In this document: one piece after another, positions 46,401-53,456 of the stretch
Layout: each line of letters starts with the position of its first letter
Numbering within the stretch: the first letter of the stretch is position 1
NCBI GenBank assembly: GCA_036399015.1
Contig: DASWNW010000012.1
Span: 2,996 to 66,995, forward strand
DNA from: Thermoanaerobaculia bacterium
GTDB lineage: Bacteria > Acidobacteriota > Thermoanaerobaculia > Gp7-AA8
Length of the DNA stretch: 64,000 bases
Direction of reading: 5' to 3'
The notes under the pieces: model-generated
What the model was told of the DNA's origin: nothing
What the model saw: the letters and a program-made list of their open reading frames with translations, nothing else
Databases searched by the model: none
Program-made: the position numbers and the translations under genes

Positions 46401-46485
46401 GTTGCGCGTTGCGTGTAGCGCGTTGCGCGGGCAGTGTCACCTGGACGGAAAGGCCCGGGTAACGCGCCACGCGCCACACGCTACT
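46401..46485. repeat. Family B REP-like hairpin (gcgcgttgcgtgtagcgcgttgcgcgggc ... gcccgggtaacgcgccacgcgc)
   Basis: Same core as 13482, 21496, 26655, 61082. Confidence 0.8.
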
Positions 46486-47821
46486 CCTCCCGCAGCGCCT
46501 CCAGCATGCGGTCGATGTCTGCTTCGGTGGTGCGGGGGTTCATCATCGTCACGCGGAGCACGCGCTCGCCGCGCAAGATCGTCGTCGTGATCCAGGCGCG
46601 GCCGCTCTGGTTGAGGCGGTCGCGGAGGTTGGCGGTCTGCTCGTCGTCGTGGCCGCGGCGGCGGAAGCAGAGGATGTTGAGGTCGGGTTGGTGCACCGGC
46701 TCGAAGTCGTCCGATGCGGCGAGGCGGTCGTACAGATAGCGCGTGAGGTCGGTGACGCGCTCGAGCGCTTCGACGACCGGCCGCGGCCCCTGCGAGCGCA
46801 GGACGAGCCAGAGCTTGATGGCGTCGGCGCGCTTCGAGCACTGGATCGTCATCTCGCCGAGGTTGTCGCTGCCGGCGTGGAAGAGATAGGGGGCGTCGGC
46901 TTCGAAGGCGCGGCGCAGCCAGATGCCGTCGCGCACGAGGATCGTGCCGAGGGAGAGCGGCATCCACATCATCTTGTGGGGGTCCCAGGAGAACGAGTCG
47001 GCGCGCTCGAGTCCCCGCACGAGGTGCGCGAGCCGGTCGCTGAGGAGCACCGACGCGCCGTGCGCCGCGTCGACGTGCAGCCAGGTGCGGAAGCGGTCGC
47101 GGAGCAGCAAGATCTCATCGAGCCGGTCGAACGCGCCGGTGGCGGTGGAGCCGGCGGTGGCGACGATGGCCAGCGTCGCGGCGTCGTCCCGCTCCTCGAC
47201 GGCGGCCAGCGCCTCTTCCAGCGCGCCGACGTCCATGCGGTGGTCGTCGTCCGTCGGCACCTTCAGCACGTCGACAGCCGGGATGCCCATGATCGCCGCC
47301 GCGCGGGCGATCGAGTAGTGGCCGTCGGACGAGGTGACGATGACCGGCCGCTTGCCGGTGCCATCCGCGATGAAGCGCGCGCGGGCGGCCATCAGGCCGG
47401 TGAGGTTCGCGACCGAGCCGCCCGACACGGCCGTCCCTTCGGCGGTCACGGGATAGCCGGCCAGGTCGGCGAGCCAGCGCACGACCTCCTTCTCGATGAC
47501 GGTGCCGATGGGGCTCATCTCCCACACCGCGGTCGAGTTGTTCGTGAAGGAGATCAGCAGGTCGGCGGTCGCGGAGTCGAGCAGCGGCGGGCAGACCTGG
47601 TGGCCCATGTACGAGGGGTGATGGAGGTGATTGGAGTAGCGGGTGACGAGCCTCGCCAGCTCCAGCGGCTCCGCCGGCTCACCGATGCGCACCAGCTCGC
47701 GCAGCTCGCCGGCCGGCGTCCACTCCACGACCGGCCCCTCGCCCACCCGCTCCACGTGGTCGAAGAGCAGGTCGACGAGATCGTGGGCGAAGCGGCGCGA
47801 GGAGTCGAAGGGAGCGGCCAT
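46481..47821 (-). CDS. Pyridoxal-phosphate-dependent decarboxylase, group II (GadB / diaminobutyrate- / aromatic-amino-acid-decarboxylase fold)
   Basis: 446 aa; PLP-lysine motif SFSWDPHKMMWMPLSLG; 15 nt downstream of, and co-oriented with, the four-paralog secreted protein array. Confidence 0.8.
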   Translation of the reverse strand: MAAPFDSSRRFAHDLVDLLFDHVERVGEGPVVEWTPAGELRELVRIGEPAEPLELARLVTRYSNHLHHPSYMGHQVCPPLLDSATADLLISFTNNSTAVWEMSPIGTVIEKEVVRWLADLAGYPVTAEGTAVSGGSVANLTGLMAARARFIADGTGKRPVIVTSSDGHYSIARAAAIMGIPAVDVLKVPTDDDHRMDVGALEEALAAVEERDDAATLAIVATAGSTATGAFDRLDEILLLRDRFRTWLHVDAAHGASVLLSDRLAHLVRGLERADSFSWDPHKMMWMPLSLGTILVRDGIWLRRAFEADAPYLFHAGSDNLGEMTIQCSKRADAIKLWLVLRSQGPRPVVEALERVTDLTRYLYDRLAASDDFEPVHQPDLNILCFRRRGHDDEQTANLRDRLNQSGRAWITTTILRGERVLRVTMMNPRTTEADIDRMLEALREE

Positions 47822-47835
47822 ACGGACCGCGCATT

Positions 47836-50881: not shown

Positions 50882-52185
50882 CGAAAACCGCCGGTGCCGT
50901 CGGGGGTGACGAGCGTGACCTGCTGCGTGTCGTTGTTCGTGACCGAGGCGAACGACCATGCGAGCGAGTTGCCGGGCGGCACCACGGAGACGATCTCCCG
51001 CGTGCCGGGTTCGCCGGCCGGCAGGTCCAGCTCGGCGTACGCCGGCGTGGCGGCGCAGCTCTCGTAGCTGTCGCAGTGGCGCGTCACGGTGTAGTTGACG
51101 TGGCGCCCGCCGTACCGCACGAAGCCGGTGTCGCCGTGCGCCGCGCCGAAGGCGTAGATGCGCAGTTTCACGCGGTAGCGGGGATCGAGCGGGACGTCGA
51201 GCAGCGTCATGGTCCCCACATCCATGTCCCGTTCCCGCACCACCGGCACCTCGGTGCCGAACCCCTCGGCCACGCGCGAGACGTCGCGCACGCGCAGCGA
51301 GAACGCGAGGTCCTCCGCGTCGCGGCGCGTCACGAGCAGCGCGACGCCGTGCGGGTAGGTGCCGCCGTTCCAGGCCAGCTTCGAGTGCGGCTGCAACAGC
51401 TCCGTGCAGGGGCCCACCACGGCGGGGCAGACGAACGGCGCGATGGCGTTGACGGTGACGATCGGCCACGGCTGCGGATTCGCGATCGCGCTCTCGGTCC
51501 GCCAGAGCGAGCCGTGCGCGCCGGGCGCGTCGAAGTTGAGCGGGAAGAGGATGCGCTCGACGTGCGTGAAGTCGGGCGCGCCGGGGCCGAAGGTAAAGAC
51601 GGCGCCCGGCAGCGTCACCGTCGAGCCGCCGTTCGCGATCGAGACGTCGTGCAGCCCCGGCGCCGTCGGCGGCGCCATGACGACGATCTCGTTCGGATGA
51701 CTCCCCTGCCTCTTCGTCATGGCCTCGACGCCGCCGATGCGGATCGCGCACTTCAGTTGGGGGCAGAGACTGAACGCGAGGTCCTGCAACCGGATGTGCA
51801 GTTCCACCCCGCCGGTCGCCGCCAGGCCGAACGGACGCACCTCGAACGGCTGCTCGCCCTCGCCGAGGACGCGGAAGGCGCCGAACGCCCAGGGAGCGTT
51901 GCCGTCGAAAACGCCGACGCTGTACTCGCCCGGCCGGAAGGGGCCGAGCTCGAGGACGCGCGTCTCCGGCGTACAGGGCTGCGGCCGGGTGAGGCGGATG
52001 GTGACCTCGAAGCCGGAGCGGGTCACTACCGGCGCCGGGGAGTTGCTGCAGGCGTTCGGAATGCGGACCTCAATTTTCTCGCCCGTGCGGATGACCTGCG
52101 GCGAGAACGTGACCAGATCCAGCGCCGCCGCGGGGAACGCCGCCGCGAGGATGAGGACTGCCGCGAGCGCGAGGCGGCGGCTCAC
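50878..52185 (-). CDS. Secreted IPT/TIG-like protein, paralog 3 of 4
   Basis: GTG start (M)SRRLALAAVLILAAAFPAAA; GTGA overlap with the paralog 4 stop. Confidence 0.65.
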   Translation of the reverse strand: MSRRLALAAVLILAAAFPAAALDLVTFSPQVIRTGEKIEVRIPNACSNSPAPVVTRSGFEVTIRLTRPQPCTPETRVLELGPFRPGEYSVGVFDGNAPWAFGAFRVLGEGEQPFEVRPFGLAATGGVELHIRLQDLAFSLCPQLKCAIRIGGVEAMTKRQGSHPNEIVVMAPPTAPGLHDVSIANGGSTVTLPGAVFTFGPGAPDFTHVERILFPLNFDAPGAHGSLWRTESAIANPQPWPIVTVNAIAPFVCPAVVGPCTELLQPHSKLAWNGGTYPHGVALLVTRRDAEDLAFSLRVRDVSRVAEGFGTEVPVVRERDMDVGTMTLLDVPLDPRYRVKLRIYAFGAAHGDTGFVRYGGRHVNYTVTRHCDSYESCAATPAYAELDLPAGEPGTREIVSVVPPGNSLAWSFASVTNNDTQQVTLVTPDGTGGFR

Positions 52186-53456
52186 GGCCGGCCTCCCTTC
52201 CCGCCCGGCGTCACGACCGTGACCTGCTGGGTCTCGTTGTTGGTGACGGTGATGAAGCCCCACGTCGCGACGTCGGGCAGCGTGACGGTCACGTCGGCGC
52301 GCGCTCCCTCCGCTGCAGTCGAGGGGAGGTCGAATTCGGCGTAGGAGTGACATCCGGAATCGTCGCAGACGGGGGCGAGGCGAACGTAGGTCGTGACGAT
52401 CGGACCCGAACGGGGAGCGACCGAGATGGCGGCGGATTGCGTCGTCGCGGTCAGCGCGTAGACGCGCAACTTCACGCGATAGCCGCTCTCGACCGGCACG
52501 TCGAGCAGCGTGAACGGCGTGTCGAAGAACGTGTCCCGCTCGCGGACGACCGGGATCTCCGTCCCGTAGCCGTCCTCGACGCGCGAGACGTCGCGGGCGC
52601 GGAGACCGAAGGCGACGTGCGGCGCCTGGTCGCGCGGGATGCGCAGGACGAGACCGCGGGGATAGTCGCCGCCGGCGAGGCGGGCCACCTCGCCAGGATT
52701 CAGGAGCCTTCCCTCCCAGGAGTAGACCAGCCACGACTCCAGATTCGCGACCACCGCCTCGGTGCGCCAGAGCGATCCGTTCGCGCCCGGCGCGTCGAGG
52801 AGCAGCGGGAAGAGGACCGGCTCGAAGAGCGACATGCCGGCGTCCTGCGCGTCGCCGCCCACGACGTACAGAGCCTTCTGGACGGTCACGAACGTGGAGC
52901 CGTGCTCGACCCGGACGTCGGCGAAGCCGGCGTCGAGCGGCGGAGCGGTGAAGAGAATGACGCGGCCGTGGAGCGCGACCCCGGTCCCCGGGAGGCCGTC
53001 GACGAAAACGCGGCAGTTCGCCGCCGTCACGCAGAGCGACTGCAGTGCGTCGATGGCCAGCACCGGAGGCGTCGGCCAGTCGAGCCGCACCACCGCGGGC
53101 TCGACCCGGAACGCCCGCTCCTCGGCGTCGCGGACCACGAACGCGGCCGTGGCCGCGATCGCATCCTCCGGATCGGCCGTCACCTCGACGCGGTACTCCC
53201 CGGCCGGCAGCAGGCCGGGGACGCGCACCGTGTATGGATACGGGATCGGGGGATCGGCGCAGAGGTGTCCGGTGTGCTCGAAATGGAGCTTGATCACCGA
53301 GCCGGCGACCGTCACCGAGGCCGGGCCGGGGGCACAGGCGAGATAGATGCGCAGGTCGACCGGCGTGCGGGTGGTCGGCGCGACGGGAAGGACGAGCAGC
53401 CGATCCTGCGCCACCGCCGGAAGAGAGAACAGCAGGAGAAGCAGCACCTTGCGCAA
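52182..53456 (-). CDS. Secreted IPT/TIG-like protein, paralog 4 of 4
   Basis: Signal peptide (M)RKVLLLLLFSLPAVAQ, TTG start; same conserved C-terminal blocks. Confidence 0.65.
   Translation of the reverse strand: MRKVLLLLLFSLPAVAQDRLLVLPVAPTTRTPVDLRIYLACAPGPASVTVAGSVIKLHFEHTGHLCADPPIPYPYTVRVPGLLPAGEYRVEVTADPEDAIAATAAFVVRDAEERAFRVEPAVVRLDWPTPPVLAIDALQSLCVTAANCRVFVDGLPGTGVALHGRVILFTAPPLDAGFADVRVEHGSTFVTVQKALYVVGGDAQDAGMSLFEPVLFPLLLDAPGANGSLWRTEAVVANLESWLVYSWEGRLLNPGEVARLAGGDYPRGLVLRIPRDQAPHVAFGLRARDVSRVEDGYGTEIPVVRERDTFFDTPFTLLDVPVESGYRVKLRVYALTATTQSAAISVAPRSGPIVTTYVRLAPVCDDSGCHSYAEFDLPSTAAEGARADVTVTLPDVATWGFITVTNNETQQVTVVTPGGKGGRP

Follow-up and report, generated by a model that had tools for sequence, protein, structure and literature searches.

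Tandem arrays of exported proteins with immunoglobulin (Ig)-like domains are well known as a general kind, and the IPT/TIG domain (PF01833, an E-set fold) is shared by plexins, MET, EBF and bacterial surface proteins. We analysed a 64,000-nt stretch of DNA (the window; G+C ≈69%) from a Thermoanaerobaculia bacterium (Acidobacteriota), in which four paralogous genes for proteins of this kind, parD, parC, parB and parA, form an array that is interrupted by a gene for a 134-aa protein (the small gene) and followed by a gene for a group II pyridoxal phosphate (PLP)-dependent amino-acid decarboxylase. Unlike in the IPT/TIG proteins named above, the TIG domain accounts here for ≈85 of ≈430 residues and falls below the Pfam cut-off; the family is instead defined by its C-terminal domain, which is not TIG. 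We give a probability of about 55% to the reading that the paralogs are exported and serve as binding proteins of the envelope or cell surface, with a head domain that is new.

Among solved structures, the Bacteroides surface glycan-binding proteins SGBP-B (PDB 7k44, 6e57 and 5e7g) share with the paralogs a series of tandem Ig-like/TIG spacers followed by a C-terminal β-sandwich head, and among the multi-domain Foldseek matches only generic Ig receptors had a higher probability. The resemblance is one of layout only, since TM-scores are <0.2 and sequence identity is ≈10%, and the phylum differs. The paralogs also have no clear lipoprotein anchor, and instead of SusC/SusD or glycosidase genes their neighbours in the window are guaB, the decarboxylase, a SpoU-family methylase, ligA and a DD-carboxypeptidase.

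Thermoanaerobaculia abound in soils and sediments and are known almost only from metagenome-assembled genomes (MAGs); to our knowledge their envelope biology is almost uncharacterised. An exported family that is core, multi-copy and fast-evolving, and whose head domain is outside Pfam, NCBIfam and the PDB, makes a sensible choice for structural genomics and could shed light on the interactions of these bacteria with substrates, phages or neighbours. A second unannotated family is represented by the conserved small protein.

Domain architecture of the paralogs

As read from the sequence, the N-terminus of every paralog combines a basic n-region with a hydrophobic core and an AxA-type cleavage site, with likely cuts at AVA/Q in ParD, ASA/E in ParB and SFA/C in ParA. 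The number of cysteines is even in every paralog (4–8), which together with the signal-peptide features fits Sec export and disulfide bonding. By inspection no lipobox was found in ParB, ParC or ParD, whose AxA-type sites lack Cys, and the SFA/C site of ParA is non-canonical.

The signal peptide is followed by an Ig-like domain, an IPT/TIG domain and an all-β C-terminal domain of ≈230 aa (the C-domain). An AlphaFold2 model of ParC based on a 37-sequence alignment (predicted local distance difference test, pLDDT, 86; predicted template modelling score, pTM, 0.80) is all-β and places the Ig-like domain at residues 26–107, the IPT/TIG domain at 114–198 and the C-terminal region at 209–432. The modelled TIG domain is an E-set Ig-like β-sandwich that can be superposed on solved IPT domains. 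ParA and ParC reach 18.3 and 17.1 bits for PF01833, below the gathering cut-off of 20.9 bits, and ParB and ParD give no match; the homologs P0343, P0224 and P0163 score 44–63 bits.

When all paralogs and the small protein were scanned against Pfam, NCBIfam, PADLOC and PHROGs, this sub-threshold TIG signal was the only match, and the C-domain alone gave no match beyond noise in profile searches against PDB sequences and Pfam. Judged by sequence, the C-domain and the small protein are new families outside Pfam, NCBIfam and the PDB; by fold they show weak similarities only. The last ≈85 residues of the C-domain were tried as a further TIG-like unit, but the hhalign probability was only 62%, a weak hint on which we do not rely. 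One homolog, P0363 (431 aa), has a precomputed match to PF27154.1, which our own Pfam scan of P0363 did not recover; this family may be a recently created one that covers part of these proteins.

Apart from the Ig/TIG cysteines, all invariant motifs of the family lie in the C-domain. The invariant or near-invariant residues (ParC numbering) are W228, D301/S303/R304, E312, R317, D320, R338/L341/R342/Y344, W410 and N417/N418/T420/Q421. Several of these are acidic, basic or amide residues (D301, E312, D320, R317, R338, R342, N417, N418 and Q421, to which Y344 may be added) such as might be needed by a new extracytoplasmic enzyme on an Ig/TIG spacer, perhaps a hydrolase or lyase of polysaccharides or peptides, with the paralogs covering different polymer substrates. 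The exported, multi-copy and fast-evolving pattern would suit this explanation too, as it resembles expansions of carbohydrate-active enzymes. However, no sequence or structural match connects the C-domain to any catalytic family, it has no invariant His or Cys, and the transporters and regulators typical of utilisation loci are missing nearby, the family loci being found among housekeeping genes. We therefore see a catalytic C-domain as rather unlikely, though still worth keeping in mind.

The modularity of the wider family is informative in this respect. An exhaustive hidden Markov model (HMM) search returned 1791 cluster representatives at E ≤ 1e-30, including some giant TIG-repeat proteins that match in their TIG part only and >100 full-length family proteins of 420–460 aa. 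With the C-domain as query, three architectures were recovered, in which the signal peptide is followed by the C-domain directly (250–275 aa), by TIG and C-domain (355–365 aa), or by Ig, TIG and C-domain (420–450 aa). No domain fusion hinting at function was found among the family members, the longer of which gain just Ig/TIG modules and no catalytic domain. Because the architectures are modular (0–3 stalk modules on a constant head), a catalytic signature is lacking and the layout is SGBP-like, we favour a stalk with a binding head. The paralogs would then have an extracytoplasmic role, either periplasmic or at the cell surface, with the Ig/TIG modules as stalk and the C-domain as working head. 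The head would most likely bind a ligand such as a glycan or an envelope polymer, and the paralogs would supply variants of that binding function.

The family is large and has so far been seen only in Thermoanaerobaculia. Motif-based scanning of 185,579 species genomes yielded 132 confirmed loci; 80 were kept, all of them from MAGs of Thermoanaerobaculia or Acidobacteriota, and several genomes hold three or four family loci each. The source names of the homologs are all "hypothetical" or "IPT/TIG domain-containing", and they too come from Thermoanaerobaculia or Acidobacteriota. Beyond the guaB site described below, 43 other family loci fall into at least three distinct and recurrent housekeeping contexts, for example beside RNase Y or S-adenosylhomocysteine hydrolase, and no recurrent functional partner common to these contexts was found across the 43 loci. 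An apparent fusion of UvrA to a paralog in one locus (L019) was rejected as an ORF-calling artefact in high-GC DNA. A literature search for Thermoanaerobaculia together with "TIG domain" returned no papers.

Several points weigh against reading the paralogs as a lineage-specific set of surface binding proteins. No informative homolog was found that would favour binding over catalysis. The conserved polar residues could be catalytic or structural, and most of the conserved blocks coincide with predicted β-strands. We saw neither a sorting signal in the paralogs nor an adjacent secretion system, and the sequences point no further than to Sec export. The restriction to one lineage rests on a motif-based scan and on protein names given by the sources. 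Finally, the dN/dS of the paralogs (ratio of nonsynonymous to synonymous substitution rates; values below) is <1, which relaxed constraint would explain as well as diversifying selection at some of the sites, and which does not show overall positive selection.

Gene order at the array site and the neighbouring decarboxylase

The six genes run on the minus strand from 53456 to 46481 in the order parD, parC, small gene, parB, parA and decarboxylase (Table 1). Public gene calls for this contig predict the identical six products, and ParA is identical to VGF28_01735, a "hypothetical protein" of a Thermoanaerobaculia bacterium MAG. The G+C content at third codon positions (GC3) is 0.90–0.96 in the six frames vs 0.70–0.72 in long antisense ORFs, which identifies the six as the coding frames. 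From parD to parA the four junctions are 4-nt start/stop overlaps (in order GTGA, ATGA, ATGA and ATGA), those on either side of the small gene included. The parA stop and the decarboxylase ATG are 14 nt apart, with no obvious Shine-Dalgarno sequence in the gap.

As expected of an operon, the six genes share one strand, overlap or nearly abut, and have no internal terminator. No predicted terminator was found between parA and the decarboxylase, and the terminator-like matches inside the coding regions are weak (7 vs a shuffled expectation of 3.5 ± 2.0, within ≈2 standard deviations). The decarboxylase is probably co-transcribed with the array in this genome.

Much of what an earlier note on this DNA had described from the letters alone is borne out by these results. 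The six same-strand genes are where it had placed them, as both the ORFs and the independent gene calls agree, and their coupling by start/stop overlaps is real. The decarboxylase follows closely on the same strand as claimed, although the gap is 14 nt and not 15. The three conserved blocks that the note had picked out can be seen in the protein alignment and also as four-copy DNA repeats of 62–77% identity. Its description of secreted paralogs that carry an IPT/TIG domain ahead of a C-terminal region outside known families agrees with the signal peptides, the ParC model and the lack of Pfam, NCBIfam and PDB matches, and the embedded 134-aa protein indeed has no signal peptide. Profile searches with a paralog C-terminal half and with the 134-aa protein, of the kind that the note had proposed, brought out no known family.

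The neighbouring enzyme was also named correctly. The decarboxylase matches PF00282 with 225.4 bits against a cut-off of 27 and has the PLP-lysine motif SFSWDPHK. Its best NCBIfam match is L-2,4-diaminobutyrate (DABA) decarboxylase (NF052646), with 260.6 bits against an equivalog cut-off of 900, which is not reached, and its nearest solved structures are DesA and DABA decarboxylases. The group II DABA/lysine decarboxylases (Ddc, RhbB and DesA; PDB 5o5c and 2qma) are thus its best named relatives, with PF00282 and the PLP-lysine motif in common, but the score of 260 vs 900 bits sets it apart, and no aminotransferase or siderophore genes are near. By its sequence the protein is a bona fide group II enzyme; as it is far below any equivalog cut-off, a substrate cannot be assigned.

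Mapping the window proteins onto fetched loci and annotated contigs revealed a conserved backbone of DD-carboxypeptidase, guaB, the array, decarboxylase, SpoU methylase, a response regulator on the opposite strand, a 173-aa protein and ligA, with hrcA, grpE and dnaK further on. The tight spacing with an enzyme gene had suggested to the earlier note an amine-modification system, in which array and decarboxylase form one unit and the secreted proteins might be modified by the amine produced, bind it or cooperate with it in surface adhesion. The shared strand, the 14-nt gap and the lack of a predicted terminator would be in keeping with this. The decarboxylase is also found 3′ of the array in most syntenic loci, often after a very short gap, so co-expression or some functional tie is possible; this counts against taking it for a neighbour only.

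However, the two do not always go together across genomes. In L065 the decarboxylase comes next after guaB, with neither array nor small gene between, while in L007 and L009 the last paralog runs straight into SpoU and the decarboxylase is absent. An opposite-strand amidohydrolase takes the place of the decarboxylase in L024, L025, L045 and L086, and in L032 and L061 it sits between the small gene and the decarboxylase. Array and decarboxylase are split by other genes in L004 (a 2-oxoglutarate-Fe(II) oxygenase and an opposite-strand gene), L032, L040, L047 and L061, and the 43 further family-bearing loci lack the decarboxylase altogether. With a dN/dS of 0.11 (window vs L088, the closest relative) the enzyme evolves like its housekeeping neighbours, matching ligA and SpoU. 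We consider one array-decarboxylase system to be highly improbable. Since L065 retains the block of decarboxylase, SpoU, 173-aa protein and ligA with no array between it and guaB, and arrays occur without the enzyme or apart from it, the decarboxylase looks like a conserved backbone neighbour by position rather than a functional partner, with no obligate association with the array. Comparative synteny points to conservation of the neighbourhood and does not support the proposed coupling of the array to an amine-forming decarboxylase; the case is a caution against the widespread habit of reading a shared function from tight spacing with an enzyme gene. The note had held that its proposal would fail if the paralogs belonged to a well-known adhesin family and had no conserved linkage to the decarboxylase; a conserved functional linkage was indeed not found, but neither could the paralogs be placed in such a family.

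Array turnover, substitution rates and the small protein

The four paralogs are only 28–44% identical (44, 33 and 28% to ParA). This low identity, and the confinement of the DNA repeats to the three conserved blocks, make the duplications old and not recent. The earlier description of the paralogs as recently diversified therefore does not hold, and each of them has positional orthologs in other genomes. Best-hit analysis resolved two clades with positional orthology, a D/C-type upstream and a B/A-type downstream of the small gene.

Copy number between guaB and the downstream block ranges from one to six paralogs, with none in a relic-only case. The minimal form, guaB-paralog-small gene-decarboxylase, is found in L017, L018, L038 and L048. 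In L088 the order is D-C-small-B-A-B′-A′, and the B-A pair has been duplicated as a unit (L088 4697–10040; B/B′ 71% and A/A′ 63% identical), so copy number at the site kept changing. The relic-only case is L086, where a 28-aa paralog C-terminus (5246–5329; 46% identical to ParA 415–442) remains just after guaB, opposite-strand DUF1501/DUF1800 genes occupy the place of the array, and the small gene alone survives. These loci show a family that grows by tandem duplication, and shrinks again, at a fixed site between guaB and the conserved block.

In one sub-lineage (L034, L040, L042, L044, L053 and L065) a short family member is located immediately upstream of guaB. The tblastn match spans ≈240–255 codons and is probably the form with signal peptide and C-domain. 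The site 5′ of guaB is a second conserved insertion point at the locus.

Substitution rates were estimated by the Nei–Gojobori method (NG86) for orthologs of the window and L088, and not for the window paralogs, because synonymous sites are saturated at 28–44% identity. Amino-acid identity between the two loci is 99% for guaB, 92% for the decarboxylase and ligA, 91% for SpoU, 89% for the small protein and 61–76% for the paralogs. The synonymous rate dS is similar for all genes (0.28–0.70), whereas the nonsynonymous rate dN is 0.18–0.31 in the paralogs vs 0.003–0.09 in the other genes. The resulting dN/dS, which in a genome with 90%+ GC3 is a relative measure only, is 0.37–0.44 for the paralogs vs 0.01–0.14 for their neighbours (0.14 for the small protein). 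Amino-acid change is 3–4 times faster in the paralogs than in the neighbours. Divergence extends across all three domains, the C-domain being slightly more conserved in most ortholog pairs (71–77% vs 58–78% for the N-terminal domains).

The small protein (pI 4.3) has no Cys and no signal peptide, and its profile gave noise or nothing against PDB sequences. It has 312 homolog clusters; among the 120 listed, every one named by its source is from this lineage. In most of the ≈34 loci that hold the small gene its immediate upstream neighbour is a paralog, and the two often overlap by 4 nt, even at deep divergence. The exceptions are L086, where only the 28-aa relic stands beside it, and a few loci in which the upstream paralog is further away; the L036 contig stops at the small gene. 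The small gene is single-copy in any locus and always at the guaB site, while the paralogs are many and dispersed. On this comparative evidence the link between upstream paralog and small gene is better supported than any link with the decarboxylase, and is the best-supported functional link in the locus. The small protein is the only candidate for a true functional partner, although the adjacency is also compatible with the small gene being simply part of the backbone.

An adjacent small gene next to fast-evolving exported proteins of variable copy number is also what a toxin-immunity-like module might look like, in which a C/D-type paralog would be the exported effector, the 134-aa protein its antidote and the other paralogs a diversified arsenal of effectors. 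The adjacency expected of an immunity gene is observed, but the small protein does not co-diversify with the paralogs: it is conserved much more strongly (89% identity, dN/dS 0.14) than the paralogs (61–76%, 0.37–0.44), the reverse of typical immunity proteins, and it stays single-copy at one site while paralogs are many and dispersed. Compared with the CdiA-CT/CdiI pairs, conservation is reversed, lying here in the small protein and the C-domain, whereas polymorphic toxins vary in their C-terminal region. Two-partner secretion or other delivery machinery and known toxin domains are lacking, PADLOC gave no match, none of the Pfam matches was to a toxin or immunity family, and in L086 the small gene persists beside a mere relic of a paralog. 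Taken together this makes a toxin-immunity module quite improbable.

A broader proposal takes the C-domain for a domain new at the fold level and the defining part of an envelope system specific to Thermoanaerobaculia, and holds that the upstream paralog and the 134-aa protein form a new two-component module. The paralog would be the exported effector or receptor and the small protein a cytoplasmic antidote, sensor or regulator, with the effector side diversified by tandem duplication at a hot spot. We put this forward as speculative and, in its full form, unlikely.

Coordinates and further features of the locus

The features at the locus are collected in Table 1. An Rfam scan of 40000–58000 gave no match.

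Table 1. Positions of the array genes, their flanking genes and the upstream hairpin in the window.
Feature	Position	Strand	Length	Remarks
parD	52182-53456	-	424 aa	first array gene; TTG start with GGAGG ribosome-binding site 5′; D/C clade; ortholog in L088 72% identical
parC	50878-52185	-	435 aa	GTG start overlapping parD stop; modelled with AlphaFold2; D/C clade
small gene	50477-50881	-	134 aa	acidic, without signal peptide; conserved family
parB	49170-50480	-	436 aa	signal peptide; B/A clade
parA	47836-49173	-	445 aa	signal peptide; B/A clade; NCBI VGF28_01735
decarboxylase	46481-47821	-	446 aa	group II PLP-dependent amino-acid decarboxylase; PF00282
guaB	53663-55297	-		IMP (inosine monophosphate) dehydrogenase; PF00478, E = 1e-160; upstream synteny anchor, 82-99% identical in related loci
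SpoU-family RNA methyltransferase	45664-46398	-	244 or 271 aa (gene calls)	PF00588; downstream synteny anchor
response-regulator receiver gene	45300-45734	+		lone gene
hairpin of opposed GTTCCTCGG tandem arrays	53545-53645	.		between guaB stop and parD start

The start of the SpoU methylase is ambiguous and public calls disagree, with an ATG at 46398 giving 244 aa and a GTG at 46479 giving 271 aa. The longer call abuts the decarboxylase stop and would extend the tightly packed run of genes beyond the decarboxylase. The convergent response-regulator gene overlaps the 3′ end of the SpoU gene by ≈70 nt, an overlap that is conserved in related loci.

The 9-mer GTTCCTCGG occurs in 27 exact copies in the window vs 1.2 expected. 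Its opposed tandem arrays form long hairpins at 6321–6469, 29487–29523 and 30682–30726, in addition to the one in Table 1. The gap between guaB and parD (53457–53665) folds with -101 kcal/mol (z = -6), and the hairpin there marks the upstream boundary of the array, where it may serve as a terminator or insulator. In the homolog P0080 from another genome the repeat is apparently translated in an N-terminal extension ("EEPRNPRNSEEPRNS"), and it therefore looks like a lineage-wide intergenic element similar to repetitive extragenic palindromic (REP) sequences.

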